A stretch of 64,000 bases of DNA from an uncultured Verrucomicrobiae bacterium (GTDB taxonomy: Bacteria > Verrucomicrobiota > Verrucomicrobiia > Limisphaerales > Palsa-1400), in assembly GCA_963702845.1 (NCBI GenBank), contig OY969763.1:1984001-2048000 (forward strand). Direction: 5' to 3'. How positions within the stretch are numbered: position 1 is the stretch's first letter; each line of letters begins with the position of its first letter. Made by a program: the position numbers and the translations under genes. The notes under the pieces are model-generated. The model saw nothing but the letters and a program-made list of their open reading frames with translations. It had not been told where the DNA came from and ran no database searches. This document shows, piece by piece, positions 1 through 14,630 of the stretch.

Positions 1-1696
1 CCGAGATGTGGTTCGTGGTCGGTTTGACCTTCAGCGCCTTTTCAGCCATTTGACGATTTAAGACAAACTGTCTTATTTGCTTCAGGTGCTTACCAACAAT
101 TTGTCTGTGCTCAAAATTTCTGAGCTCAGCTTCGCGGGTTTCGATCTCTTTCTGAGGATCAGCTTTGTTGAGTCCGTCCAACTGGGCTGTTAGCGCTTCG
201 ATAATCGGCTGTAGCTGCGGTGTTGGAACGGAACGCATGGGCACCGTTGTGACAGGCGACTTATCGGTAATCGACTTCAGTATTTGTGTTTGAAAGCCCT
301 TCGCGTTTGCAACGAACGAGGCGACAAGCTTCTGCTCGCTTTCGTGTTCTGCTTCCAAGAGCTGATAAACCGAGGAGTTTTCATCAAAGAAGCCGATGTC
401 GAGTTGCCCAATTTTCCGGTGAACGCCTTTCAACTGCTGCTCGCAGGACTGCATGTTCTGTTTAGAGTCGTCGTTGAGGAAATTCCAATACCTCTCGAAC
501 AACTTGATGGCGTTCTCTTGCAATTCTTGATGGCAAAGCAAGCAATGATCGCCTTGCTTAGGATAAATAGTCCGGTCTTCTTCGTGAGTCAGCGCGTGGG
601 CTTGGTGGATAAACTCTTGCCAGGAACCAGAGCCAATCTGTGGGAACAGTTCGTTTTTGAATGATGTCGCGCCCACGAGTTCCGATCGTGTTTTGGCAGC
701 GTTGAAGTCGTCGATCAGTTTCTGGATCTCTTTTCTGGATTGAGTCCCGAGCGTCTGAGCAAGCGCATTTATTTTGGTAACTGAGTTCTGTAGGTCGCGA
801 ATCGCTAAGGTTTTCTTTCGTACTTCGGCAGGGATGTTCAAGGAGCGGAATCTGGCGATCTCCTTTTTTAATCTGTCAATTTTTTGTTCGTCTGCCTCGG
901 TTAACTTTCCCAGCTTCTCCAACCCATCAAGGTCTGTTTTTGAACTCAGAGCAGCGATCTTGGCCCTAACGTCGGAATTTCCTGCGAACTTATCCGAAAA
1001 GTCGTTTTCTTGGTTCCAGTTATCGATGCTGCTTTGCACATAGGAACCAACCTGGTCGCATACTTCGGCTAAAGACGTAAGATATTCGAGCCCGAGCGGG
1101 GAAAACTTGAACTCGTTTTCTTGGGTTAGGTGCGCACTAATGCTTTTCGTGTCATGCACATAAAATTGCTGTAACATCGGATGGTCATCATCGACATTGA
1201 AAGGAAGCTTTACGGGTCCAGCTTTCGTTTTTAGATGAAAGACGGCTTGTTTGGCGGTTTTCGATGCCTTGGGATCGGTGATATTGTGAAGAATTTCTTT
1301 GTCGCCACGAGTGAAACACGCATTTCCAAATAACCTTCCGTATCCAGATTTTCCGGTGCCGTTCGCTCCATAAATGATAGTGAGATGATCGCTAAAATCT
1401 AATTGTTGGCCATCAATCAAAGCATTGATGTTTTGAGTGCCCGTTATGGATGCGAGAAAAATCTTCTCTGAAGTCTTTTTTCCTTCCAGGGTTACAGCTT
1501 TTTGCAGTCCTTCTAGCTTTATGCGCTCATTTTTATTCTTTGTCACACCCGCATCTTCAAGCAGGCATTCGCCCATATATTCTATATCCGTGGGCTCTAT
1601 TTGCTCCCCACGGATAATAAGGTCTAGGGCGTATTGTTCCCAATATGGAAGTTTTTTAGCTTTGACCCAATCCAGTAGTTCTTTTGTGACATTCAT
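1..1696 (-). CDS. Rad50/SMC-like (AAA_13/RloC-like) ABC ATPase with zinc hook; 3' end runs off the window; absent from the ORF track
   Basis: Manual translation from ATG at 1696: MNVTKELLDW...NINALIDGQQLDFSDHLTIIYGANGTGKSGYGR (Walker A). The same frame gives YPKQGDHCLLCHQEL (CxxC) at ~521-565. The track lists no terminated ORF in this frame, consistent with it staying open to the edge. Confidence 0.85.
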   Translation of the reverse strand, partial: MNVTKELLDWVKAKKLPYWEQYALDLIIRGEQIEPTDIEYMGECLLEDAGVTKNKNERIKLEGLQKAVTLEGKKTSEKIFLASITGTQNINALIDGQQLDFSDHLTIIYGANGTGKSGYGRLFGNACFTRGDKEILHNITDPKASKTAKQAVFHLKTKAGPVKLPFNVDDDHPMLQQFYVHDTKSISAHLTQENEFKFSPLGLEYLTSLAEVCDQVGSYVQSSIDNWNQENDFSDKFAGNSDVRAKIAALSSKTDLDGLEKLGKLTEADEQKIDRLKKEIARFRSLNIPAEVRKKTLAIRDLQNSVTKINALAQTLGTQSRKEIQKLIDDFNAAKTRSELVGATSFKNELFPQIGSGSWQEFIHQAHALTHEEDRTIYPKQGDHCLLCHQELQENAIKLFERYWNFLNDDSKQNMQSCEQQLKGVHRKIGQLDIGFFDENSSVYQLLEAEHESEQKLVASFVANAKGFQTQILKSITDKSPVTTVPMRSVPTPQLQPIIEALTAQLDGLNKADPQKEIETREAELRNFEHRQIVGKHLKQIRQFVLNRQMAEKALKVKPTTNHIS

Positions 1697-1795
1697 AATT
1701 ACAAAACGGACGGACCCGCCATCAATGAGAGGCTGCCAGTTTTAGTTTATTTTACAGTAAATAAGACTGAGTGCATATGGAGTGCGAACTCAATA

Positions 1796-1824
1796 TTGTA
1801 CAGCGTCTGTGCTTCTGGTAATGT
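1796..1824 (+). promoter_or_regulatory. sigma70-type promoter (TTGTAC-N17-TAATGT, extended -10 TG) for a leaderless HTH gene
   Basis: Same motif and spacing at 5389-5417 and 7359-7387, each ending 6 nt before the ATG. Confidence 0.65.
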
Positions 1825-1830
1825 TGCTGC

Positions 1831-2157
1831 ATGATCAATAGGGAGGCTCTAGACGAACTTAAGACGATCTGCGAGCGCATGGGGCACCTATGCGGGGATG
1901 AAGAAGCTCAAAGGATAGGTGAGCGAATTCTGAAGTTCATCATCAACTCAGAATATCTTCGGCCTCCGGAGTTGCTCTCGCTTGAGCAATCCGCTTTCGA
2001 TTTGATAAAAAATTCGAGCACCTCGCCTTCCATCCGAGCAATTACTGCCGCTATCGGACTGTCGTCTTCACGATCTGGATCTCGTGTTGTGCAAAGTCTG
2101 ATGCGGAAGCGACTCATTTGTCGCAATGCTGAGGGAAAGCTCACAGTCGCTCGATAG
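1831..2157 (+). CDS. LexA-type winged-HTH protein (no peptidase domain) with small N-terminal helical domain
   Basis: SPSIRAITAAIGLSSSRSGSRVVQSLMRKRLI resembles the LexA N-terminal DNA-binding domain; homologous to 5424 and 7394 ORFs. Confidence 0.75.
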   Translation: MINREALDELKTICERMGHLCGDEEAQRIGERILKFIINSEYLRPPELLSLEQSAFDLIKNSSTSPSIRAITAAIGLSSSRSGSRVVQSLMRKRLICRNAEGKLTVAR

Positions 2158-2199
2158 TTGCCGTAGTCGGCAAAGGGATGTGTCTTGTTACGAGACCCG

Positions 2200-2490
2200 T
2201 CAATTTGATAATGTGTTGTCACGCCCTTCACGCGAGATTCGACCAAATCTACCACCACGTTCACGTTTGCGTTTTGGAACGACGGAAGCGTTTCGATTGA
2301 ACGGATATCGGTTGAAAATATGAGAGTGTGGGTCGATCTTTTTCCATACCTTGTCTAATGCTGATTTTAGTGTTCTGGTTCTACCTTCGTCCACGTCCGG
2401 CACCAAGTTCACCATTCGCGAAATAAGCTCAGATACAGGCGCTAATCCCCGGAGGTTTGGCGGGCAGCAAAGCGCCGAATTTTGGTAACT
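2200..2490 (-). other. Degenerate recombinase-tail / cassette junction remnant
   Basis: Minus-strand frame contains LVPDVDEGRT (cf. CPPQRDRPRT); GCCGAATT at ~2474-2481 echoes the junction palindrome; same position relative to an HTH gene as the other tails. Confidence 0.4.
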
Positions 2491-2708
2491 TAATCCGTGC
2501 GGGGGGCGAAGCTCGCCATGAAAACAGTTCTGCGTAACTTCAAGTAAAACTTGACACAGCCATATCGTTCGCCGAGAGTCGCACTACTTTCCCAATCAGC
2601 ACGAATTGAATAATCCGGGGATTCACCGAAGCGAATTGTTCAAGTGGAATCGACGCACCCTAACAAACTGAATATTCTTTCACCGATCCAATAACGAGAG
2701 GCAGGTTT

Positions 2709-4018
2709 ATGGCACATCCTAAAAAATCGAACAAGGATCAAGAGGCGACAGGGAAAAACCCGGAAAAACGAAAAGCAGCAATTGAGATTAAGGAACAAAA
2801 ATCGCCGGCGGTACGTTCCCACATATTTAAAACGTTTAAAACAATACCAAAAATTTATCTGGATGCTATTAAGACCCTTTCAGTCGACACAAAAAAGTCC
2901 CGACGACTGTTTGCCCAACTCAATAAGCACAAGGCTTCTGGAATTGTAAGAAACGTAAAACCATTGGCTGACTCGGTGCTTATTCCTAGCGGAAAGGACA
3001 CAGATGTAGTTGTCAGCAAACTGGGTCCGCCGAAAAATATTAAAATTCACGACGGTGGCGGGGGGCGAATGCCAAATGCTCAAGTGTATCTGGTATTCTG
3101 GGGCGATAAGTGGGCCAACAATCCCCCTTCCAATCCCTCGCTACAGGATATTTACGCTGATATCTCTGCCATACTCGGGAGTTCGTATCTTTATTCCGCC
3201 TTTCAATATAAACTGGGATGGAATGCCGGCGGGGCATCGCTGTCCAATGCCTGGATAGATAAACGAGGGGTGCCCAGTTACGATTTCACCATGGTTGACG
3301 TTAACTATGAAGCATGGCTGATGATGACAAGTGGGCCAATCAGCCCTGATAGCGACACAATAGTTTGCGTAATTATGGAACCTGGGGCCTCGCCGTCGGA
3401 AGATTTGCGTGGAGAGCACCAATGGAGCATTCAGCCAGATTGTCAGCAAATTCCAACAATGTGGGTGAAATATGATACACGCGAACGTATGTCCTCCACC
3501 TTTTCGCATGAACTGGTGGAAACGGTGACGGATCCATTGGGGACGGGATACAGGCGGAGCCGACCGGCTATTTTGATTGGAATGAGATTGGCGATGTATG
3601 CGAAGGTTTTGACGGCACAGTGAATGGCGTCACTGTGCAGGCTTATTGGTCTGCGAAAGATAATTCCTGTGTGATTCCACGACCGGTACCTGTAAAAGCA
3701 TGGCAGATTACTTGCATTCAGAAACGTGGGAGTCATAGCAATCCGAACGAAAACATTAAAGTGGTAGCTGGAATTCACATTCCTTCCGGTCAGAAGTTTT
3801 GGATGAAACAGGAAGAAGTTATGGCAAGAATAGACAAAGGGGATCAATTCTTCGTTGCCGGGGCCGATGGAAGCCAAGCGCAAGTTAAAGTCTTTGTCCA
3901 CTTCCCGCCTTGGCAGCCGCAAGGCAGTCGTTACATTGCAACCGTAGCCGACGACAGTACGGACGATAATCTGCTTTCGCTGCCAGACTGCCTGCAGGCC
4001 GATTTGCGTAATGGATAA
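2709..4018 (+). CDS. Phi-1/EXORDIUM-like HExxE-motif protein fused to C-terminal DUF3892-like domain; split by a 1-bp frameshift near 3545
   Basis: VYLVFWG and SHELVETVTDP in the first ORF; the second frame gives IQAEPTGYFDWNEIGDVCEG..VNGVTVQAYWS directly after TDPLGTG; C-term ITCIQKR..YIATVADDSTDDNLLSLPDC matches the DUF3892 pattern. Confidence 0.65.
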
Positions 4019-4075
4019 GTGATAAACACATCGAAATTAGACGGTCGCGGGGGACGCGCTTGCCGTTTAAAACAT

Positions 4076-4363
4076 ATCGACGCCTCTTTGATTAATTCCT
4101 AACGGTGTCAGTATCTGAAGTCTCACCACAACTCATGGCCGTCGCTAAGTCGGGGAGTTTTCCCTGCATATTTAATGCTATAATAAGGCCAAGAATTTTC
4201 CTCCACGTTCGAGGTCTGTCACGTTGTGGGGGACACGATATGCCGAATTCGGCAAATGGAAGTGTCGGAATGCCCTCTACTGAGAGCTGATTTTAACAAT
4301 AAAAAGTCACGAGTAAACACCGTTTGTCAAAACCACCGGTAAACACCTGTTAGCAGGTAAACA
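4076..4363. repeat. Junction repeat copy 1: recombinase 3' tail (4092-4235) plus 128-bp conserved arm (4236-4363)
   Basis: Direct repeat of 5756-6040; tail part also matches 7742-7885. Confidence 0.95.
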
Positions 4364-4413
4364 GTCCTGCGTTATGTTTTGTTACAGCGACCGAATGTGG
4401 TACAACAATCCAT

Positions 4414-5373
4414 ATGACTAAGGTCACATTGGATACCAATTTATTGATTGAGCTTTTCGATCTCGGTATTGAGGGGAAAACAGTTCCGGCACTCGGAAAG
4501 ATTTTTAATCACTGTTTTGATTTTCAAAATATCGATCTCAAGATTACGACAAAAGTATCCGACGACTTGTTGGGGGATCGCATCAAGGAACGGGCCCAGG
4601 CATTAAAGCTGCGTATCGATAATTTGTTTTCCGTGCTCGGGGCAGGATACGTGTCCATCGATGATTTACCGAGCGATCCGATCGAAAAGCTCAACTTCAT
4701 TGAGCTTCAGCGAGTGCTTTTTCCAAATCTCATCACTACCGACAAGCGATATAAGAACAAGATCAACGATGTTCACCATCTCCATCGTCATATTCGCGCC
4801 GGCCGAGACGTCTTCATTACAAATGATTCCGACATGTTGAAAAAGAAGGACGCTTTAAAAACAGCGTTTAAAGTCGTGGTGATGAGTCCAGAGGAATGTG
4901 CAAAGTATCTCGATGTAATAACCGCGAAAGAAAGTTATCCTTTCGAGAAACACGTAGGTCGAGCCGACTATCATTCCCCGGCACTAAAAGGTACGGTGAC
5001 CTTTGATTTCACCAATAACGATCATAAGTATACGATTGGGACTGATGATTGGATTTTTGAAACTCGTTGGTCAGAGTGTAGCGACGACGAAATGTATGCC
5101 TACAACGACGCTCCATCGATCCTAGCATTGGCCGTTGCGGAGAATGTTTCGAAATTTAAGGACGTACATGATTTTGAAAGGTATGACTCAACATCTCGTG
5201 TTCGCCAACCTCGGAAGAATGTAGATATTCTCGTTCTGAAGAATTCGAAGGGATATTTTGCTGCGGTAAAGATCTGCAATATTGAGCTCAAACGCCGTGG
5301 GGGAAATAAGAATGAACTGACGTTTGAATACGTTATACAACCGAATGGGACATCATCATTCAAAGGTCTTTAA
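4414..5373 (+). CDS. PIN-domain ribonuclease-like protein fused to a beta-rich C-terminal domain (candidate anti-phage gene)
   Basis: N-terminal VTLDTN and NDVHHL..DVFITND acidic PIN motifs; separate C-terminal domain starting SPALKGTVTFDFTNND. Confidence 0.75.
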   Translation: MTKVTLDTNLLIELFDLGIEGKTVPALGKIFNHCFDFQNIDLKITTKVSDDLLGDRIKERAQALKLRIDNLFSVLGAGYVSIDDLPSDPIEKLNFIELQRVLFPNLITTDKRYKNKINDVHHLHRHIRAGRDVFITNDSDMLKKKDALKTAFKVVVMSPEECAKYLDVITAKESYPFEKHVGRADYHSPALKGTVTFDFTNNDHKYTIGTDDWIFETRWSECSDDEMYAYNDAPSILALAVAENVSKFKDVHDFERYDSTSRVRQPRKNVDILVLKNSKGYFAAVKICNIELKRRGGNKNELTFEYVIQPNGTSSFKGL

Positions 5374-5388
5374 TTGATAGTGCCAGGC

Positions 5389-6040
5389 TTGTACAAAATC
5401 CATTCATCTGGCAATGTGTGCCGATGGCGGATGAACTCAGTGAAGAACACAAGAAGGAGCTCGACCATGTCCTGGAAGCCGTTCAGCAATTCCTTTCTAC
5501 CGAAGAAGGCAGAGTAGTTTTTGATCGGCTTGAATCAATTTCAAACGGTATTCAGGCGCGGCAGGGGATAGTTGAACTCTCGTCGCACGAACGTCAGGCA
5601 CTACGATTCATTCAAACGGAACAAAGAAAGGGTTGTAATCCCTCTGTGCGGCAGATTTCGAAATCACTTGGATTTAGATCTTCTCGAACTGGCCACAAAA
5701 TTCTGAAATCATTGCGGACGAAAGGAGTTATTCCTGAACCTGCCGCCGACGTCAAATCGACGCCTCTTTGATTAATTCCAAACAGTGTCAGAATCTTCTG
5801 TGTCACCGTTCATAGCACGCTCAAGGTTGGGCAACTTGCCTTGGCGGTTTAATGCTATAATCAGGCCAAGAATCTCCTCACAGGTTCGAGGTGTGTCACG
5901 TTGTGGGGGACACGATATGCCGAATTCGGCAAATGGAAGTGTCGGAAAGCCCCCTACTGAGAGCTGATTTTGACAATAAAAAGTCACGAGTAAACACCGT
6001 TTGTCAAAACCACCGGTAAACACCTGGAGATAGGTAAACA
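5389..6040. repeat. Junction repeat copy 2: HTH promoter, HTH gene, recombinase tail (5772-5912) and arm (5913-6040)
   Basis: 5389-5912 is a direct repeat of 7359-7885; 5913-6040 matches 4236-4363 at 120/128 positions (manual count). Confidence 0.95.
5424..5771 (+). CDS. LexA-type winged-HTH regulator lacking peptidase domain
   Basis: LSSHERQALRFIQ..NPSVRQISKSLGFRSSRTGHKILKSLRTKGVI aligns with the LexA DNA-binding domain; ATG 6 nt after a -10 box. Confidence 0.85.
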   Translation: MADELSEEHKKELDHVLEAVQQFLSTEEGRVVFDRLESISNGIQARQGIVELSSHERQALRFIQTEQRKGCNPSVRQISKSLGFRSSRTGHKILKSLRTKGVIPEPAADVKSTPL

Positions 6041-6098
6041 CTTCACCAGAATAATCGGCTTACATTGAAAACTACGGTTGATGTGAGATAATCCGTCC

Positions 6099-7346
6099 AT
6101 GTTAGGTCAACCGTCAATTTCTGATTATTATCGCCAACTCGAACAAGAAGTTCGCAGTGATGTTATGCGCGAAACAGAAGAACAAATCTTAGGAACGGAT
6201 CCGGAGGAGTTAGCCCAGTATATTTTTGAGAAATATGCACTGTCACCTATAGAGCTAGATGCTGACCGTGAACCATCGTGGGATCCGCAAAATTACTTAA
6301 AGACGATTTCCGCTCAACAACGCGGTAATTTTTATGGGAGCAGTGGAGATCTCCGAGATTTTCCATGTCAGAAAGTTGCGGTTGAAGTCCCAATATTGCC
6401 AAATCCAAAGCTGCATCTCATTTCTCAAATGCATGGAGCGTCGTATTCATTGAGTTACTCGCTCAGTGACTTTCATTGGGGACAGGATTCCGTTTCGATG
6501 TCATTTCCAACGAAAGACTATCAATACCAAATGGATGATGCCGCAATAGCACATACAGTTGAGAATCAATTGCGGACAATCCACGAAACGATTAGTTCCC
6601 GTAACCAGGCTATTGAGCAGGGCAACAAACAATTGCTGACACAAACGAAATTTTATGTTCAGCAGCGTCGAGGAGAAATTGAGCAAAATAAACAGAAGCT
6701 CGAGGCTCTTACCAAGACCATCGGCGTTTCTTTAAAGAAGAAGGTTCCTGCGGGTGCACATCCTGTTCGTATTTCCCATACTCCACTTGTTCAAAGAGTA
6801 AAACCAAAACCAACGTTACCCGAGCAATATGTCCTAGATGAGAACAAAATCGATGATGTCATAAATTTGCTCGATAATCAGGCCCGTAGCTTCGAACAGA
6901 CTCCCGGCGCGTTCAAAGCATTAGGTGAAGAAGATCTCCGAGATATATTACTGTCGAATTTGAATTCCGTATTTGAAGGCGCCGCGACAGGGGAAACCTT
7001 TTCAAAAAAAGGGAAGACGGATATTTATCTGAAAATTGCGAAGGGTCAGATACTCATATGTGAATGCAAATTGTGGGCAGGTCGTTCTCTTTACGAAAAA
7101 ACTATTGATCAATTGCGAGGTTATCTGACGTGGCGGCATAACTACGGAATTATGATTACCTTTGTTCGTAATAAGGATTTTTCAAAGGTGTTACAAGAAA
7201 CCGAAAACGCGATTCAAGAACACCCATCATATCTGAATGGATTAAGGAAGATTGGAGAGACACATTTTGTATCTAATCACAAAGTTGATGACGATACGAA
7301 GGAAGTGAAGATTCACCATCTTTTTTATCACCTATATTCGAGTTAG
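6099..7346 (+). CDS. Coiled-coil protein with C-terminal PD-(D/E)XK restriction-endonuclease-like domain (candidate anti-phage gene)
   Basis: EEDLRD...GETFSKKGKTDIYL...ICECKLW gives E...D...ExK spacing; own promoter-like TTGAAA-N16-GATAAT 6 nt before ATG. Confidence 0.75.
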   Translation: MLGQPSISDYYRQLEQEVRSDVMRETEEQILGTDPEELAQYIFEKYALSPIELDADREPSWDPQNYLKTISAQQRGNFYGSSGDLRDFPCQKVAVEVPILPNPKLHLISQMHGASYSLSYSLSDFHWGQDSVSMSFPTKDYQYQMDDAAIAHTVENQLRTIHETISSRNQAIEQGNKQLLTQTKFYVQQRRGEIEQNKQKLEALTKTIGVSLKKKVPAGAHPVRISHTPLVQRVKPKPTLPEQYVLDENKIDDVINLLDNQARSFEQTPGAFKALGEEDLRDILLSNLNSVFEGAATGETFSKKGKTDIYLKIAKGQILICECKLWAGRSLYEKTIDQLRGYLTWRHNYGIMITFVRNKDFSKVLQETENAIQEHPSYLNGLRKIGETHFVSNHKVDDDTKEVKIHHLFYHLYSS

Positions 7347-7393
7347 ACATCAGTAGATTTGTACAAAATGCCTTAATCTGGCAATGTGTGCGG

Positions 7394-7798
7394 ATGACAC
7401 AAGAACTCAGCGACGAGCAAAAGAGGGAGCTTGATCACATTCTTGAAACTGTTCAGCAATTTCTTGCTACTGAAGAGGGAAAGGAAGCCTTCGATCGCCT
7501 TGAATCAATTTCAAACAGTATTCAGGCGCGACAGGGGATAGTTGAGCTCTCGTCGCACGAACGTCAGGCACTACGATTCATTCAAACGGAACAAGGAAAG
7601 GGCCGTAATCCTTCTGTGCGGCAGATTTCGAAATCACTTGGATTCAGATCTTCTCGAACTGGGCACAAAATCTTGAAATCATTACGGACGAAAGGAGTTA
7701 TTCCTAAACTTGCCACTGAAGGCAAATCGACGCCTCTTTTATTAATTCCAAACGGTGTCAGAATCAGAATTCTCACCACAACCCATGGCCGTCGCTAA
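7394..7798 (+). CDS. LexA-type winged-HTH regulator (paralogue of 5424-5771)
   Basis: Near-identical HTH; TGA stop of the other copy is TTA here, so it reads into the convergent recombinase tail. Confidence 0.85.
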   Translation: MTQELSDEQKRELDHILETVQQFLATEEGKEAFDRLESISNSIQARQGIVELSSHERQALRFIQTEQGKGRNPSVRQISKSLGFRSSRTGHKILKSLRTKGVIPKLATEGKSTPLLLIPNGVRIRILTTTHGRR

Positions 7799-9313
7799 GT
7801 CGGGGAGTTTGCCCTGTTTATTTAATGCTATAATCAGGCCAAGAATCTCCCCACAGGTTCGAGGTCTGTCACGTTGTGGGGGACAACCACTTATTTTATT
7901 CCGATTTGCGATCTCATGAAACGGAGATTGGAGCTTTAATTCTAGGTTTTTTGCCGTTGCCTGCCAGTTCGAGGTAAGAGTTTTGAGCATTTCACGTTTT
8001 TCTTCTGGGATTGCCATTTGGTAGCTCAACCAAGCGTTTCCTGCCAGTTCGAGGAATTTTTCTACGCGACTCATATTTCGCCCGTTCGAGCGTTCACAGC
8101 GCGCTAGTTGTTCTTCAAATGTTTTCTGTTCAAGGAGCAGAGCCTTTTTCTTTTGCTCAAAGAGTTCTTTGTCTAACACCTGGTCTAAATAGGCGTCGGT
8201 CAGGCGACTGAGACGTTCTTTTGCTTGGCCTAGCTGCATTTTCAATGCCCCTAACTGGGCTTCACGTTCGCTCTCCCAGTTTCCCTTCAGGCGCTTAACT
8301 TCCGTTTTGAAAAATTCCTTTTCTTGATCGTTGAAAGTCATCAGTCGAATCAATTCTTCAATTGCCACGCTGATGTCTTCTTCTCGAAAGCTGGTTGCGG
8401 GACACGCTCGGGTGTGACAGCGATAGTAGGCATGGCCCTTTTGTCGCTCGCCGATGAGCGAGTATTCACATGTGGCGCAGCGAACCATCCTACGGAATAG
8501 GAACACATGACGCTGTGTTTTTGCGCCACATTTGCCCGAAAGAACCGCTTGGACGCGATCAAAGAGCGCTCTCGTGACTAGGGGCGCGTGAATGCCGGAG
8601 AATGTTTCGTCCGTTTTGCGTATGCGGATTAAGCCCATGTAAAACGGGTTGTTAAGTATAACTGACAGGGAATTCCTGTTGACGCTTCCGCCCTTGCGTT
8701 GCCGCAGTCCACGTTTTTCTAACTCGATGCGCAGGGCCTCCAACGAAAAGCGCCCGCTTCCGTAAAGTTCAAAGACTTGGCGGACAAGCGGCCCCATAAC
8801 CGGATCAATGGTTTTTGGCTGTGCTTTTCCGCGGTCAACATAACCAATCGGCGCTTGAAGCGGATATAAGCCTTGTTTCAGGCGGCCATAGAAACCTTTG
8901 CGGGTCTCTTCGCGTAGGTTGCGAATGTAGTCAGCGGCAACTACTGCCTGGATGTCGGCGGAGAGCCGCCCGCCTCGTGTTTGTAGGTCAATGCTTTCAT
9001 TAACAAAGTGGACTTCAACTCCTTGATCTGAAAGTTCACCGATTGCTGCCCAATCGCGCAGGTTACGCGCGCCACGATCGAGCTTGTGAAGAATGATTCC
9101 TTGAGCTTTACCGGTGCGCAGAAGTTTCAGTGCCTGGTTGAACACCGGACGGCCTTGTTTTGCTGCGGTTTCCATTTCCTCGAGCCATGTCGTGATTGTG
9201 AACTGGTGCTGGTTTGCGTAGCGAGAAATAGCGTCTCGCTGTTCCTGAAGCGACACGCCTTGCGTCCCTTGTTTTACGGTGGAAACCCGTATGTAGCCGA
9301 TATATCCCTGCAT
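7742..9313 (-). CDS. Large serine recombinase (integrase)
   Basis: YIRVST catalytic Ser motif, KLDRGAR, recombinase domain (APIGY, LNNPFYMG), Zn ribbon CATC..YYRCHTRAC, coiled coil. Confidence 0.97.
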   Translation of the reverse strand: MQGYIGYIRVSTVKQGTQGVSLQEQRDAISRYANQHQFTITTWLEEMETAAKQGRPVFNQALKLLRTGKAQGIILHKLDRGARNLRDWAAIGELSDQGVEVHFVNESIDLQTRGGRLSADIQAVVAADYIRNLREETRKGFYGRLKQGLYPLQAPIGYVDRGKAQPKTIDPVMGPLVRQVFELYGSGRFSLEALRIELEKRGLRQRKGGSVNRNSLSVILNNPFYMGLIRIRKTDETFSGIHAPLVTRALFDRVQAVLSGKCGAKTQRHVFLFRRMVRCATCEYSLIGERQKGHAYYRCHTRACPATSFREEDISVAIEELIRLMTFNDQEKEFFKTEVKRLKGNWESEREAQLGALKMQLGQAKERLSRLTDAYLDQVLDKELFEQKKKALLLEQKTFEEQLARCERSNGRNMSRVEKFLELAGNAWLSYQMAIPEEKREMLKTLTSNWQATAKNLELKLQSPFHEIANRNKISGCPPQRDRPRTCGEILGLIIALNKQGKLPDLATAMGCGENSDSDTVWN

Positions 9314-9324
9314 GAAATTTGCTG

Positions 9325-9531
9325 TTACCCGGAAGGCGGGGTACAGGGTAACGTACCGGTACCAGCGGTCAACTGGCCCTTCTGTGGATTGGATTCGATG
9401 CGTTCAAAAACGCGCAACACGAGAGCCAGATACCGATGCAAGCTGTCCTCAGCTTGGCGCAATTCGTCTTCGCTTAAATCGGGATACAATTCACGAATTT
9501 GTGGAGTGGTTTTGTCCACGTTTAATGGCAA
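9325..9531 (-). CDS. Small helical hypothetical protein upstream of the recombinase
   Basis: IRELYPDLSEDELRQAEDSLHRYLALVLRVFERI; co-oriented, stop 11 nt before the recombinase start; true start uncertain. Confidence 0.6.
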   Translation of the reverse strand: MPLNVDKTTPQIRELYPDLSEDELRQAEDSLHRYLALVLRVFERIESNPQKGQLTAGTGTLPCTPPSG

Positions 9532-9537
9532 AGCACT

Positions 9538-9711
9538 TTAGTTGTCGTTCCCGCCCTCCTTTTTCGCGTTAAAGACGACTCCGAAGAACCGTAGCAAACG
9601 CACGGCCATTTTCTGCACCTGTTTGTCCGTAAGCAAAATCCCGAATACTTCTTTATAAGCGGCCTTGAACTCCTCGATAGCCTCGCGACCCAGTTGTTGT
9701 TGTGTTTTCAT
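9538..9711 (-). CDS. 57-aa hypothetical protein (below ORF-track cutoff)
   Basis: Manual translation MKTQQQLGREAIEEFKAAYKEVFGILLTDKQVQKMAVRLLRFFGVVFNAKKEGGNDN; resembles the N-terminus of the 1831 HTH protein. Confidence 0.7.
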   Translation of the reverse strand: MKTQQQLGREAIEEFKAAYKEVFGILLTDKQVQKMAVRLLRFFGVVFNAKKEGGNDN

Positions 9712-9739
9712 GTGTCCACATTAACGCGTGGAAAATACC

Positions 9740-9900
9740 CCGCCCAGACACGGCGGTATGCCGAATTCGACAACTTGTTCATTATCGTATGCTTGACAGA
9801 ATTATGAATATGTGTTATAAACCCACACTGACTGCGCCGGAATGCGCGGGTTTTTGTTTATAGGACTTGCCGAAAACGGCAAATGGCAGTGTCTGGGCGG
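9740..9900. repeat. 34-bp imperfect inverted repeats (9740-9773 and 9867-9900) flanking a promoter
   Basis: CCGCCCAGACAC at 9740-9751 is the exact reverse complement of 9889-9900; 27/34 match overall. Confidence 0.85.
9793..9821 (+). promoter_or_regulatory. Near-consensus sigma70 promoter TTGACA-N17-TATAAA with extended -10
   Basis: TTGACA 9793-9798, TG 9813-9814, TATAAA 9816-9821. Confidence 0.75.
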
Positions 9901-9951
9901 ATAGGCCCAAGCTGCGTAATCTTCATCCTGAACTCTCAGGGAGTTTTCACT

Positions 9952-10311
9952 ATGGCTTCTCGTCGTCTTTCAAATTACCTGGTCTCAGAAAGGAAGCGCC
10001 TTGCTCTTTCACAAGAGGAGGTGGCTTTCATGCTGGGTAAAAAGACAGGAGAGCAGGTATCGCGTCATGAGTGCTTCTCGCTGGTGCCGACGCTCGAGAC
10101 CGCGCTCCAATACGAAGCGATATACAAAAAACCGGTCAGCGAACTGTTCGCCGGGCTGTTTGATAACGCGCAAGCGGATGTTGCTGATCGCGCGGAACTA
10201 TTGTCAAATCGCGAGCGAAGGACAAAGGGAAAGGAGCGGAATGCCATAAAGAAGCAGCTGTTTGAGGGTCTCGCCTTCGGGGAAATTCTGAAAAATCATG
10301 GGCAAAAATAA
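9952..10311 (+). CDS. XRE-family HTH transcriptional regulator
   Basis: LSNYLVSERKRLALSQEEVAFMLG..VSRHE..PTL; SD-like AGGGAG upstream of ATG 9952. Confidence 0.85.
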   Translation: MASRRLSNYLVSERKRLALSQEEVAFMLGKKTGEQVSRHECFSLVPTLETALQYEAIYKKPVSELFAGLFDNAQADVADRAELLSNRERRTKGKERNAIKKQLFEGLAFGEILKNHGQK

Positions 10312-10827
10312 ACACCAACTTCAACGTGTTCTCGGGCTCGCCGTTTCGAGTCGCGGCTTTGGCTATGCGCTCTTTGAAGGAGAGAAATTGGTCAATTGGG
10401 GCTTTGCCTCAACTAAACAAAAGCAGAATGTCAACGCGTGGTGTGCAAAGCGGATCGAGAGAATGGTTAAACAGTATGAGCCGGATGTGATTGTAATCGA
10501 AAGCGTATTTGCAAACGGTGCTGTCCGTTCGCCGCGTGTTCGCCGGCTTGCGAAACAGATTGAAGTGATAGCAGGTAGACGACAGTCGCGCGTTAAATCA
10601 TTTTCGAAACTTCACGTGATCAAATCCGTCTGCGGAACCGTATCAGCGACGAGGCACGACATGGCTGACAAAGTTTCCAAACTATATCCAAACGAACTCT
10701 CATTTCGTTTACCCAAGCGGCGCGGAACCTCGTATCCGAAGACCGTCGTATTCGCATGTTTGAGGCTGTGGCTTTAGCACTTCTCGTAGTAAAAGGACGA
10801 AGCTGCACGCCTGTGGATGATTTTTAG
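10298..10827 (+). CDS. RuvC/RNase H-fold resolvase-like protein, 1-bp frameshift near 10730
   Basis: RVLGLAVSSRGFGYA..PDVIVIE pattern; the C-terminal SEDRRIRMFEAVALAL motif is in the adjacent frame ending at TAG 10825-10827. Confidence 0.65.
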
Positions 10828-11079
10828 TCGGTTGCTGAACTGGGGGCGAAGTGAAAATAGCGCACAATTTTTATGTTTTTCGTTTTTGTGCTTGCTGGAA
10901 AAACCTACCAGCGTATAAGGGTTCCCACTAAATTAAAGTTCGCAACCAAAACGAAAGTAAAGCCAACAAAAACAACAACCAAAGAATCCGTTTCTGAATT
11001 CGGTCTGACGCCCCAAACAACGCTGCGGTTTCCACTTACGGGCTTCTTGAGCTGATCCATTAACGGTGGTTCTATTTCT

Positions 11080-13734
11080 ATGAAATTTGGAGCGTTTCTT
11101 ACCACACTGATCCTTTCTGTCTTCGGTTTCCACGCCGCTAATGCTGATGTCGTTGTTGGCGGAGCTGCAGTCGTACCTGCGATTTGGTCGCAACCTTTAA
11201 GCCAGACGACCGGATTCGGGACTGACGTGACTTTCACAGCCGGTGTCACTGCGGACAGTCCGACATACCAATGGTTCAAGAACGGAGCGCCTCTCGCCGA
11301 CTACAACAACATCGCGGGATCGAGCTCGGCCATGCTTCATGTCGTTGGCGCGGCGCTTGATGACGCGGGAAGTTACAGCCTAATCGTGACGAGCGCGGCG
11401 GGGCTTTCCAGCACCAGCACTGTTGCGACGCTATCAATTAACCAAAAACTCGTCTTCGCAGACGATTTCGAAAGTGGGCTGGCCAACTGGAAGGCGGGCT
11501 ACGATTCAGTAATGTTGAATTGGGATACGAATGTTAACCATACGCCTGGCGGCACCAGCTCGGCATTGGCGTCGGGAAAACCGAGCAGAATGCATCATAG
11601 CCTGGCAAAGAAACTGCACGGTCGACTGCAACTCTCGTTCTGGATGTATGACGACGGAGTGAGCAAGATGGCTGTAGGAGAGGTCTGTGGCTATTCGGGC
11701 GAGAATGGCTATGGTCGCTACGCCATTCACGACGGATTCGGCCTGATCCAGTCACTGGGCATTGGTTACCGTTCCTTCACCGGAACGAACGTTGAGGCGC
11801 GCGCCGAACAATTGGATGCGACGAAGTATCAGGCACATGTTTTGCGAGGACCGGGACATGGCTGGTTCAACCTGAGTGCGCCTGGAGCGCCGACCCGGTC
11901 CCGCGGCTGGCATAAGTTTGAGATACGGCGGTCGAAGGACGAGCACATTATCGACTTCTACGTCGACGGTGTTCTTGGTCGGCGAATCCGCGAGGCGCGG
12001 TCTGCGGACCTCGACACCATTATCGTGGGATCGTGGGGAGCACTGGGGCAAGGGGACGGGTCGGGAGCAACTGGAGTCTGCAGCTTTGATGACATTGCGC
12101 TTGAGGCGTATCCCGCTACGTTCGACTACGAATCATCGGCACAGAGTGGTCCCGTGCCCACGATCATGCAGCTTCGGGAAACCGGCACGAACGGGGCAGT
12201 TTCCGGCGTCACTGCGGTTACGGCTGTGGAACTGGCTGGCTCGGCCGCACAAGCCATAGCCGGCAAATGGGAAGCGATAAGCACGGGCATGCTCGCGACA
12301 GACGTTCGCGGACAACTTGCGTATTCGATCACCGTTCCGTCAGACGACGTATACCGCATTGAAATCGAAGGTCGTGAAGAGTCCGGACGCATGCCCGAAG
12401 TAGATTTACCGCTCAACGTGTCGATGGACGGAGAATATTTGGGCCATTTCAATTTGGAGTATCACAGGCAGACGAGCGGCCGCGTTCATTGTTTCACGCC
12501 GTTCATCCGAGCGGGAGTGCACAACGTGGTGATCGAATGGGACAACGCCCGTCCTCGCCGAGCGCTTTACCTAACTGCTGTACGCCTGCAATCGCTGCCG
12601 AGTTCTGTCGTCGCCAACAACGGTATTAAGCAGTGGGTCGTTAATAGATTGTCGGCTGAATGCGGACTGGAAGTGATTCCCCGAGCAAGCAAGGTTTCTC
12701 CAGTCTGCATCGAAGGCCGGGCGCGCTATCATAAAAATATGACCGTGCTGGCGGGCGAGCAGTATCCGCTCGCGCCAGTGACAGCCCATCACGGTACGGG
12801 ATATCGCTGGTATGCGAACGTTCCGTTGTCCGCTACGAACGTGACCGCAGTGGAAGTCTCGTATCAAAGCGGAGTTGTATCCGAAACCAACACCATTGTG
12901 TGGGAGCCGACGGACGTTCTCACGGAAGCCGATATGCAGATTCGAAAAGGAGATTCACTAATCTTCAACGCGGTTCCCGCAGGTGTTTCAAACGGCACGT
13001 TCAGGATCAGCATCAATTCGCAAAGCATCAATGCTGACGCGTTGAGCGTGGTTCCGTACCGGTTTTCTCAGCCGGGCACCTACACTGTCACCGGAACGTA
13101 TCTGAATTCTGGCGCATCGCGCTCGATAAACGTGCATGTGATTGACGCTTCGCTGCCCCGCATTGTGGCGGTGGTGGGATGGCGAGCGCATTGGTATTGC
13201 ACGAATCTGCCGCCTGAAGTCGTCATAGACAGCGATCCTCGAATATTACTCGGCACTCCGCAGGGCATACGTCCAAAGCGAGTTATTCAGAAGACCGCTG
13301 CGCCTGCTGCGCCGCAGGGTGAAAACGCACGTGATTTCAACATTCGCAACGCCTCGACTGAAGAACCTCGGTATGTCGTGGCGCGATTGGGAACGAATGG
13401 TCCGATCATGGCCAGCGCGACTATACAGGGTATCAAGTTTGCCATTCCACCTGAGACGCAGCTGCGAGTGATGGACCGTAAAGAGGATGGCACGCAACTC
13501 ATCGAAGGTACGTATCTCGTCAATCCGATGCTGCCGACGCTGACTGTCGGTTTCCGAATCGCGACTGCCGGAGTGACTTTCGATGACGGCACGGTCCAGA
13601 AGCTTTTGACGCCGACAGACTTCGACGGCCTGGGTCTTTGCAGGCTTCGTTTCGTGCGAAGCACGGGCGTTCAGGGAAGCGTCTGTCACGACATGCAGGT
13701 GTACGAGAATGGCGTTCTGATCAATCACAAATGA
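11080..13734 (+). CDS. Secreted multidomain protein (signal peptide, Ig-like, lectin/CBM-like beta domains)
   Basis: Signal peptide ..HAANA; Ig-like SQPLSQ..YQWFKNG..DAGSY; FADDFESG lectin-like start. Confidence 0.8.
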   Translation: MKFGAFLTTLILSVFGFHAANADVVVGGAAVVPAIWSQPLSQTTGFGTDVTFTAGVTADSPTYQWFKNGAPLADYNNIAGSSSAMLHVVGAALDDAGSYSLIVTSAAGLSSTSTVATLSINQKLVFADDFESGLANWKAGYDSVMLNWDTNVNHTPGGTSSALASGKPSRMHHSLAKKLHGRLQLSFWMYDDGVSKMAVGEVCGYSGENGYGRYAIHDGFGLIQSLGIGYRSFTGTNVEARAEQLDATKYQAHVLRGPGHGWFNLSAPGAPTRSRGWHKFEIRRSKDEHIIDFYVDGVLGRRIREARSADLDTIIVGSWGALGQGDGSGATGVCSFDDIALEAYPATFDYESSAQSGPVPTIMQLRETGTNGAVSGVTAVTAVELAGSAAQAIAGKWEAISTGMLATDVRGQLAYSITVPSDDVYRIEIEGREESGRMPEVDLPLNVSMDGEYLGHFNLEYHRQTSGRVHCFTPFIRAGVHNVVIEWDNARPRRALYLTAVRLQSLPSSVVANNGIKQWVVNRLSAECGLEVIPRASKVSPVCIEGRARYHKNMTVLAGEQYPLAPVTAHHGTGYRWYANVPLSATNVTAVEVSYQSGVVSETNTIVWEPTDVLTEADMQIRKGDSLIFNAVPAGVSNGTFRISINSQSINADALSVVPYRFSQPGTYTVTGTYLNSGASRSINVHVIDASLPRIVAVVGWRAHWYCTNLPPEVVIDSDPRILLGTPQGIRPKRVIQKTAAPAAPQGENARDFNIRNASTEEPRYVVARLGTNGPIMASATIQGIKFAIPPETQLRVMDRKEDGTQLIEGTYLVNPMLPTLTVGFRIATAGVTFDDGTVQKLLTPTDFDGLGLCRLRFVRSTGVQGSVCHDMQVYENGVLINHK

Positions 13735-14630
13735 GCCGGTCTCTCGTCATCCGTTGTTTGCTAAGCCTGCATGTCTGCGCTGCGGGAGTGCTTCCTTGTC
13801 GGGCGCTTGAGCAGTTGTCGACCAACTTTAACGGCCAGGCTCTTTCGGTGCGCGTCTTAGCGAAAAAACTGGCCTCAACCGACAATCGCAAGGTGTGGCT
13901 TATTTGTGACAGCGACGCTGAGATAGGCGTTCGGCTTGATGCTGCGCGCACACTGGGTAATGAACTGAAAACGGCAGATGTCCGGGCCTTGTATGATTTC
14001 CTAAAAGCTCACCCCGACCGTTCGGAGCGGAATCTCGCCGGCTTGCGGTTTCTTAAAAATGAGGTTTTCGGAACGTTAATAGAGCAGACCGTCCCGCCCG
14101 CGGGGCTGGCCGAAGCCATGGCTGTGGTGTGGGCGGATCATGAGCAGGACATCGTCGCGCGAGACTATGCAATTCAACACATGGCTGTTTGGTACGATGA
14201 CAATCCCGAACGAAAGGATTCCGATCGGGCGCTGATTCGCGACGTGCTCCTGCGGGCTGCGCACGAGCAAAGCAGCCTGGCCGGAACGGCTCTTATCGGA
14301 CTGCATCATGTCTCGGCATTTGATTCCGACATTAAGAGCCGAACTGTAGATGACCTCGCGTTCCAAATGGCAGCTTCAATTTCTATGCCGGATACCGCCA
14401 GGATTACCGCAGTGCAAATCTGCGCACAACGCCGAATTGTCGCGGCGACTCCGGTAATCGAGCAGATCTTGAAGGACTCACAGAACCCTACGTTGCGTCT
14501 TTCCGCCATGTCCGCATTGAACACGCTTCGCGGGGCAACGGGCGGTTACAGCGACATCGAGCATGGCGCGCTCAGCGATTTTTCCGCTCGATCTCGGAAC
14601 CAACAACGTCAGGACTCAACACCGTTCTAA
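13731..14630 (+). CDS. Exported HEAT/ARM-repeat-like protein
   Basis: ATGA overlap with upstream stop; helical repeats VRLDAARTLG, ARITAVQI, LRLSAMSAL. Confidence 0.65.
   Translation: MSRSLVIRCLLSLHVCAAGVLPCRALEQLSTNFNGQALSVRVLAKKLASTDNRKVWLICDSDAEIGVRLDAARTLGNELKTADVRALYDFLKAHPDRSERNLAGLRFLKNEVFGTLIEQTVPPAGLAEAMAVVWADHEQDIVARDYAIQHMAVWYDDNPERKDSDRALIRDVLLRAAHEQSSLAGTALIGLHHVSAFDSDIKSRTVDDLAFQMAASISMPDTARITAVQICAQRRIVAATPVIEQILKDSQNPTLRLSAMSALNTLRGATGGYSDIEHGALSDFSARSRNQQRQDSTPF

Follow-up and report, generated by a model that had tools for sequence, protein, structure and literature searches.

In a 64,000-nucleotide stretch of the genome of an uncultured Verrucomicrobiae bacterium (assembly GCA_963702845.1, contig OY969763.1, positions 1,984,001 to 2,048,000), referred to here as the window, a gene for a large serine recombinase (LSR) adjoins two gene cassettes that have no recombinase of their own and that each carry a complete, in-frame version of the C-terminal tail of the LSR. 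It is fairly likely that such cassettes accrete site-specifically at an attachment site situated in the 3' coding end of the LSR gene itself, and that with each of them the site is restored as well as the reading frame. The first-pass annotation of this DNA had claimed that each cassette brings a tail for the recombinase, and this is borne out by the presence of two extra copies, which bound the two cassettes.

Three copies of the recombinase tail

The last 46-47 codons of the LSR gene are present three times on the minus strand, as the tail in use (T1) and two spare tails (T2 and T3; Table 1), and repeat-finder and alignment comparisons give copies of 141-177 nt with 85-89% identity. The identity of all three copies ends exactly after GGGGGACA, at 7885, 5912 and 4235, as the annotation had stated; past this point copies 2 and 3 run into a common 128-nt leader and copy 1 runs into the recombinase body. 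At the opposite end the three-copy identity extends for about 19 nt beyond the tail stop codon (4073-4091 and the equivalent positions). The 13-mer GTTGTGGGGGACA occurs exactly three times in the window, ending at the same 4235, 5912 and 7885, and with one or two mismatches two more matches are found near 21.9-22.2 kb; the chance level at up to two mismatches is about 1.0 match, and five matches were reached in none of 100 shuffles. Translation of the minus strand confirmed exactly the peptides of 47, 46 and 47 aa that had been reported, all of them stop-free to the terminal stop, and the sole length difference among the three tails is one codon. T1 differs from T2 at 28 of 138 aligned nt and from T3 at 14 of 141. 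T3, which scores highest of the three (51.8 bits) against a hidden Markov model (HMM) of the tail, is probably a displaced earlier tail. No further tail copies were found in the 6.03-Mb genome by DNA search, protein search or the tail HMM.

The order of the locus on the plus strand is flank, T3, cassette 1, cassette 2 and LSR body, and it follows from this geometry that the cassette adjoining the gene body completes the enzyme, a point on which the annotation is further upheld by one of the relatives described below. Weak terminator-like hairpins with T-runs are present within T1 (7801-7816) and T3 (4151-4166) on the plus strand, which is that of the cargo, and the tail DNA may also serve to terminate convergent cassette transcripts.

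An empty and an occupied locus

Scans with the LSR protein yielded 109 other loci, made up of 26 in species genomes, 80 of 99 metagenome loci, two viral loci and one in a family relative (G018). The viral contigs provided only these two distant loci, with 28% identity, and the labels of the metagenome-assembled genomes (MAGs) span Verrucomicrobiota, Acidobacteriota and others, the labels being as deposited and subject to possible binning errors.

Two of these loci, L062 and L066, form a natural pair in which the same site is empty and occupied, respectively. Their LSR bodies are 96.6% identical (48 differences in 1427 nt), and L066 has an extra 2.4 kb in the form of a clean insert that begins at the break, contains no recombinase and carries a new tail, a gene resembling the small open reading frame (ORF) orf68 that lies upstream of the window LSR, a retron-type reverse transcriptase (PADLOC RT_VI, 1e-30) and a helix-turn-helix (HTH) gene. 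The working tail of L062 matches the displaced tail of L066. Compared with L062, the L066 LSR has had its 3' part replaced, and its working tail is the one that came with the insert. Over the 600 nt past the old tail the two loci are 88-94% identical and in the far flank 95-99%. Just beyond the old tail there is a stretch of approximately 800 nt (4500-5300 of L066) with only 56-82% identity, which is apparently a fast-evolving or exchanged segment. Two ORFs after the old tail of L066 gave roughly equal proportions of non-synonymous (pN) and synonymous (pS) differences, of about 0.6; this was taken to indicate a misaligned or non-coding frame and the values were not used.

Recurrence of spare tails

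When the tail HMM was run over six-frame translations of 110 sources, matches were obtained in 40. A working tail was found in 39 sources, 24 of which have at least 3 kb of downstream DNA, and spare tails are present in six of these 24, or in seven of 25 if L066, the working tail of which fell below threshold, is added. The loci in question are the window, L021, L022, L028, L056, L066 and, with a truncated copy, L044, and every spare tail is downstream of the LSR and on its strand. In the window, and likewise in L021, L022, L028, L056 and L066, direct repeats of the target's end delimit units that stand in tandem, some of them lacking a recombinase. In the eight full spare tails from six loci, identity with the gene starts about 23-26 nt before the conserved CGA-AC codons (Arg485-Thr486), with a few more nt in common with the gene in copy 2 of L028. 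The ninth spare tail (G018/L044, contig G018:C92), which is found some 90 nt after the LSR stop, starts at WDRLL and is without the first 12 codons. The displaced tail of L056, together with the following 70 nt, matches the working tails of L050 and L051.

The C-terminal motif (G/C)PxRDxPRTWDxxL...LPDL has been conserved among homologues of the LSR at 45-64% identity, also in those from loci without arrays, and the tail therefore belongs to the enzyme family; T1 and T2 deviate from the family W-D consensus after PRT. A search of 401 genomes of the phylum for the pattern ATACCTCGAACYTGGGA with at most one mismatch gave single matches in seven and no arrays, and a reversed-pattern control gave matches in three genomes.

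Selection on the tails and the proposed attachment core

An important consideration is whether the tails evolve as protein-coding sequence or as DNA. Six independent copy pairs were pooled, the two WIN_1 pairs and both L028_2 pairs being dropped as non-independent, together with the truncated L044 tail. The recombinase frame gave a pN/pS of 0.60 with no stops (p = 3e-4), the antisense frame a similar 0.64, as shared third positions would lead one to expect, with 7 stops (p = 2e-3), and the other four frames 0.94-1.03 with 15-18 stops (p = 0.36-0.56). For the three window pairs pN/pS in the recombinase frame is 0.40-0.51. Codons 1-13 have a pS of 0.22 and a pN of 0.20 (pN/pS 0.92, p = 0.45), and from codon 14 to the end pS is 0.52 and pN 0.27 (pN/pS 0.52, p = 1e-4), so that the dN/dS analysis recommended in the first-pass annotation does reveal protein-like constraint over the greater part of the tail. 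Within that part, codons 14-27 (pS 0.46, pN 0.20) give 0.43 (p = 0.0014) and codons 28-end 0.59 (p = 0.011). Random stops or frameshifts among the spare tails, which the annotation had named as the observation that would tell against it, number zero in the eight full copies; with random substitution at the observed divergence the probability of remaining open is 0.19-0.58 per tail and 1.6e-4 for all eight jointly. The first 13 codons are constrained as a DNA site and the later codons as protein, and two constraints overlap. Tail divergence may stem largely from periods spent as the working tail, and the evidence for selection is not specific to the present state of the spares.

Codon usage among 43 homologues (intact ORFs of 480-580 aa, with broken or truncated ones such as L032, L037, L038, L046, L057 and L080 excluded) shows GGT at 477 and ATA-CCT-CGA-ACT at 483-486 to be fixed, with a top-codon share of 0.83-1.0 compared to a mean of 0.54, and this fixation exceeds what amino-acid conservation alone requires. 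The smallest segment shared between copies is about 40 nt, in L028. On account of the constraint on codons 1-13, the fixed codons and this segment, a putative attachment core is placed in the first ~40 nt of the tail. Its dyad symmetry, measured on 41 sequences with L071 dropped, is weak: relative to the break, three near-equal centres at +10, +18.5 and +28.5 each reach 7.5-7.6 of 20 pairs (mean 5.0, sd 0.76), and none stands out as the place of the crossover. The annotation had also placed the crossover inside the gene. The break does lie within the coding end, at the same codon in every family member with spare tails, but it may be the outer edge of a ~40-bp core rather than the crossover itself, which may fall within the core instead.

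In an AlphaFold2 model of the LSR (mean predicted local distance difference test score, pLDDT, 81.6) the tail follows the last zinc-ribbon strands as a loop (residues 470-484), a helix (485-499, pLDDT 70-87), to which codons 14-27 above are assigned, and a disordered stretch (500-523). It could be argued that the spare tails matter as DNA sites only, their open frames being left from recent use or hitch-hiking and their peptides having no copy-specific role. Such an explanation would be in keeping with a core that evolves as DNA (pN/pS 0.92), with the predicted disorder of the last 24 residues, with the departure of T1 and T2 from the W-D consensus and with the similar pN/pS of the antisense frame. 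It does not sit well with the constraint on codons 14-27 and 28-end, with the lack of any stop in the spare tails (joint chance 1.6e-4), with the conservation of the helix across homologues of 45-64% identity or with the seven stops in the antisense frame of the pooled pairs, and we consider it unlikely.

The recombinase, its neighbours and the cassettes

Table 1. Features of the recombinase locus and adjoining DNA, in window coordinates.
Feature	Position	Strand	Basis or remark
LSR gene, 523 aa, body plus T1 as now assembled	7742-9313	minus	Pfam domains
LSR body, codons 1-476, single copy	7886-9313	minus	Alignment; beyond 7885 the other copies no longer match
Tail T1, in use, 47 codons plus stop	7742-7885	minus	Alignment, translation
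Spare tail T2, 46 codons plus stop, right end of cassette 1	5772-5912	minus	
Spare tail T3, 47 codons plus stop, last in array	4092-4235	minus	
Proposed attachment core, first ~40 nt of tail	7846-7885 (equivalents 5873-5912, 4196-4235)	minus	Codon 1-13 constraint, fixed codons, L028 segment
Cassette 1: leader 4236-4363, ORF 4414-5373, LexA-like winged HTH (wHTH) 5418-5771, tail T2	4236-5912	plus	
Cassette 2: leader 5913-6040, ORF 6099-7346, LexA-like wHTH 7388-7798, tail T1	5913-7885	plus	
Operator-like module CGATATGCCGAATTCGGCAAATGGAAGTGTC opening each leader	4236-4270, 5913-5947	plus	
orf68, conserved small ORF, 11-nt gap upstream of LSR	9325-9531	minus	Homologues adjoin LSR in 58/109 other loci
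orf57, small ORF upstream of orf68	9538-9711	minus	Homologues in 3/109 other loci
XRE-like gene, divergent	9952-10311	plus	tblastn matches in 44/109 other loci
RuvC-like gene	10298-10777	plus	tblastn matches in 29/109 other loci; Pfam RuvC 5e-5
Flank beyond T3: wHTH homologue 1831-2157, leader-like module 2152-2186, 304-aa ORF 2709-3623, DUF3892 protein 3620-4018	1831-4091	plus	

The LSR has matches to the Pfam families Resolvase (PF00239, 3e-28, residues 5-148), Recombinase (PF07508, 5e-15) and Zn_ribbon_recom (PF13408, 2e-7). Its N-terminal resolvase catalytic domain has the serine nucleophile, Y7, R9 and S11 of YIRVST being invariant in the 43 homologues, and the recombinase and zinc-ribbon domains have the inserted coiled coil, seen in the model as long helices at 329-376 and 382-408. 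The best Foldseek matches in the PDB are serine integrase-DNA complexes, the titles of which name Bxb1 and PhiC31 (E 1e-17 to 1e-12). A complex prediction for LSR residues 462-523 with orf68, run without controls, scored 0.01 and has no bearing either way. The 3' coding region of the LSR also has three direct repeats of CTCGAAC on the minus strand (8047-8053, 7967-7973 and 7857-7863, at spacings of 80 and 110 nt), which are read in different frames (L-E-L, S-N and P-R-T), with the same codons in nearly all of the 43 homologues, and the first two in the window have 20 nt in common (CCTCGAACTGGCAGGNAACG). These repeats may be accessory binding sites.

The conserved module consists of orf68 and the LSR, usually accompanied by a divergent pair of XRE-like and RuvC-like genes. 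The XRE-like gene is downstream of the LSR and on the same strand in L059 (11700-13231), L026/L072 (13799-14526) and L025 (13696-13941), with the RuvC-like gene beside it in L059 and L026/L072; at most other loci it is upstream and divergent. At the position of the first catalytic Asp of RuvC (motif GIDPG) the RuvC-like proteins of the window and of L021 (8663-9214) read LGLAVSS and LAIAPST, respectively, and the protein may be a non-catalytic junction binder.

No recombinase or fragment of an LSR body is present in either window cassette. The cargo ORF of cassette 1 (319 aa) has no family match and no PADLOC match; that of cassette 2 (415 aa) is a full-length match to the PADLOC defence candidate PDC-S54 (3e-80). 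The two cassette wHTH proteins are 83% identical. Where the wHTH gene of cassette 1 has its TGA stop, that of cassette 2 has TTA; its stop is thus lost and the frame continues for 18 more codons, antisense through T1. Cassette DNA and contents are unique to each locus, and none of the 109 other loci has a homologue of the window's cargo or wHTH genes.

The operator-like module, a palindrome TGCCGNNNNCGGCA followed by AAnGGnAGTGTC, is found at the head of each plus-strand unit. Related modules are situated at 2152-2186 and at 9862-9895, the latter heading the XRE/RuvC-like operon, and an inverted pair of modules (including 9740-9775) brackets the LSR/XRE promoter region. The pattern TGCCGAA..CGGCA occurs five times in the genome, three of them at this locus. 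At L021 there are TTGCC-N6-GGCAA palindromes in the control region and directly after both tails.

In the left flank the wHTH homologue is distant (30% identity, E 0.012 in a single comparison) and ends directly at the leader-like module; the left end of the array is not fully explained, because no tail is present between the two. An AAA ATPase gene (2-1696, minus strand) that runs off the window matches PADLOC PDC-S06 (8e-78) over profile positions 1-556 of 858. A second LSR fragment, 22 kb to the left of the window (G000:C1:1962022-1963843) and with 47% identity, covers residues 126-318 alone; it is separated by 96 nt from DNA with 69% identity to 10885-11059 of the window, adjoins a partial match (73%) to an 884-aa gene, and may represent a decayed sister locus at a paralogous site. 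On the other side no tail-like site was found right of the RuvC-like gene, and the right flank (10790-13800) has no DNA match in 12 relatives. An Rfam search of 1-12000 with E up to 0.1 and a tRNA/tmRNA scan of the whole window were both without a match.

How cassettes may accrete

The proposed course of events is as follows. A recombination site would lie inside the LSR gene, taking up roughly 40 nt at the start of its last 47 codons, and cassettes without a recombinase would carry a copy of this site and, after it, a full tail in frame with a stop. A cassette circle would recombine with the in-gene site and so be inserted there, whereupon the incoming tail would become the working end of the enzyme and the prior tail would be displaced downstream as a spare; repeated insertion would yield, in order, T3, cassette 1 with T2, cassette 2 with T1 and the gene body. 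Any two tails would be directly repeated copies of the site, so that excision of cassettes should also be within reach of the same enzyme; the L062/L066 pair is the sole indirect evidence for excision and circularisation of units. The reason for copying the tail would be that a cassette which cut the enzyme short would deprive itself of the means to move. Islands that target tRNA genes carry a replacement tRNA end, and the replacement enzyme tail of a cassette is a parallel to this. What the sequences show is the repeats, the constant break, the recurrence in the family, one pair of empty and occupied loci and the double constraint as DNA and as protein; a catalytic role for this LSR, the existence of circles, the position of the crossover and continued activity of the spare sites are inferred. 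Restoration of the site and of the reading frame is alone sufficient to explain the data.

A number of observations weigh against this proposal. Serine integrases ordinarily act on a pair of unlike sites, attP and attB, and a directionality factor sets the direction of the reaction. The sites described here are all alike or have the tail arm in common, the tail arm being shared by cassette site and gene site and the other arm differing, which is untypical of serine integrases, and no inverted version of the tail-side motif is conserved on the body side of the break. The L044 spare tail, which is without the proposed core, looks like a dead remnant. PADLOC matches are confined to three cassettes (cassette 2 of the window and those of L066 and L021), with none in the cargo of window cassette 1 or in 12 proteins scanned from the L022, L028 and L056 cassettes, so that to speak of a defence array is only partly true. 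The cassette leader resembles the LSR/XRE control region, the L021 spare tail is directly preceded, with a gap of 63 nt, by an orf68-like gene, and deletion of 7886-9861 would join T1 to the leader-like module at 9862-9895 and thereby recreate a tail/leader junction.

The likeness of the leaders and the orf68-like gene of L021 also fit cassettes that are cut-down whole elements, and it might be supposed that they are remnants of stacked LSR-bearing elements whose bodies were later lost, leaving tail, cargo and control region. The L021 arrangement does look as if an LSR body had been excised between gene and tail. However, the loss would have to have ended at the same nucleotide in eight full spare tails at six loci, the window cassettes retain no fragment of a body, L066 differs from L062 by a clean insert that lacks a recombinase, and the orf68-like gene of L066 comes after the new tail and not before the old one. 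This origin for the cassettes therefore strikes us as improbable.

The effect of the deletion just mentioned, which reproduces the junctions J1/J2, raises a further explanation, namely that the mobile entity is the LSR unit itself (7886-9861, comprising body, orf68, orf57 and control region) and that it landed in the tail/leader junction of an older array, so that the tail belongs to the target. The varying position of the XRE/RuvC-like pair, downstream and on the same strand in L059, L026/L072 and L025, would be consistent with such mobility. Yet the tail motif accompanies the LSR in different phyla, also at the 18 of the 25 loci that have no spare tail, a search to the right of the RuvC-like gene and in the rest of the genome gave no further tail, the difference between L062 and L066 is a cassette and not an LSR unit, and repeated tails are given no reason. 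Of all the explanations put forward here it appears to be the least probable.

Site-specific accretion of cassettes at the LSR coding end might also be taken a good deal further. The LSR family could be a serine counterpart of the integron, with the coding end as dock, the three CTCGAAC repeats serving as accessory sites that mark the working copy, and cassettes bringing matched tails, often together with a wHTH or orf68-like regulator, that alter the stability, partner binding or direction of the enzyme. We regard this elaboration as unlikely. If it were true, the cassette that happens to stand first would in turn influence later capture and release.

Comparison with known systems

The staphylococcal cassette chromosome (SCC), including SCCmec and tandem SCC-like cassettes, is moved by the large serine recombinases CcrAB/CcrC (Hossain et al. 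2024, PMC11470126). Shared with the present locus are the class of enzyme, the tandem cassettes between direct repeats of the target's end, the existence of some units that have no recombinase and are moved (at the present locus putatively) in trans, and cargo enriched in anti-phage genes (PMC11470126). The SCC dock, however, is the 3' end of the housekeeping gene rlmH (PMC11470126), and here it is the LSR's own coding end, with the consequence that every insertion rewrites the C-terminus of the enzyme; there is also just one LSR, accompanied by a conserved small ORF as its partner, in place of a CcrA/CcrB pair. Accretion of the SCC type or of cis-mobilizable elements (CIMEs) is directed at host housekeeping genes (rlmH, ssrA, fda), at their 3' ends, which is not the case at this locus. 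A similar arrangement exists in Dehalococcoides, in which islands at ssrA are served by DsiB, a CcrB-family integrase of ~540 aa, and 15 islands without an integration module have been read as cis-mobilizable and gained by accretion (McMurdie et al. 2011, PMC3146451). These too are tandem islands between repeats of the target's end and depend on a serine recombinase, but the target is a tmRNA gene with a 20-bp RNA-gene repeat and the integrase, located inside each island, is unaltered by insertion (PMC3146451).

Attachment sites within recombinase genes are known from tyrosine enzymes. In the myxophage Mx8 attP is within the int coding sequence, and recombination creates a new int 3' end and an altered enzyme that is still active (PMC6070905). 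The location of the site and the new 3' end are points of likeness; the differences are that Mx8 has a tyrosine integrase, that it is the int-bearing element that integrates, that the new end comes from host DNA and that no cassettes bring tails (PMC6070905). The 'suicidal' SSV-type integrases of archaeal viruses and plasmids, said to be restricted to archaea, likewise recombine at a site that lies in the integrase gene itself, but they are tyrosine recombinases and integration splits and inactivates the gene (PMC8371274). At the present locus the break is 47 codons before the stop, as would be expected of a site inside the recombinase's own gene of the Mx8 IntP or SSV type, the enzyme is a serine recombinase, and the inserts do not carry it.

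Integrons depend on a tyrosine recombinase and on attC sites, imperfect palindromes at the end of each cassette that fold as single strands, and most of their cassettes hold one ORF without a promoter and are expressed from Pc. The locus described here is like an integron in having a resident recombinase, a dock beside or in its gene, cassettes without a recombinase of which the newest is nearest to the gene, and cargo that is in part defensive. It differs in having a serine recombinase in place of the tyrosine recombinase IntI, two-gene cassettes with their own operator-like leader and regulator, and a protein-coding site, the repeat being a coding segment of 141-144 nt with a weak dyad (7.6 of 20 pairs) and not an attC palindrome. 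In the literature open to full-text search, with most subscription journals and supplements outside it, no serine recombinase with a dock in its own coding end and tail-restoring cassettes was found. The layout thus seems to be undescribed for serine recombinases, and it combines known kinds, namely accretion of the SCC type and the att-in-gene arrangement of Mx8 and SSV.

Significance

If cassettes do accrete at the coding end of the LSR, there would be a third way, beside integrons and SCC-type islands, of stacking exchangeable gene packets, some of them anti-phage, at one address, and that address would form part of the reading frame of the very enzyme acting on it. Selection would then bear jointly on a DNA site and a protein segment, and the content of the cassettes would be linked to the sequence of the enzyme. 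The results also point to a family of serine recombinases, from MAGs labelled as several phyla, with a compact and predictable site of ~40 bp, and recombinases of this kind, possibly acting on like sites, are sought as tools for genome engineering.

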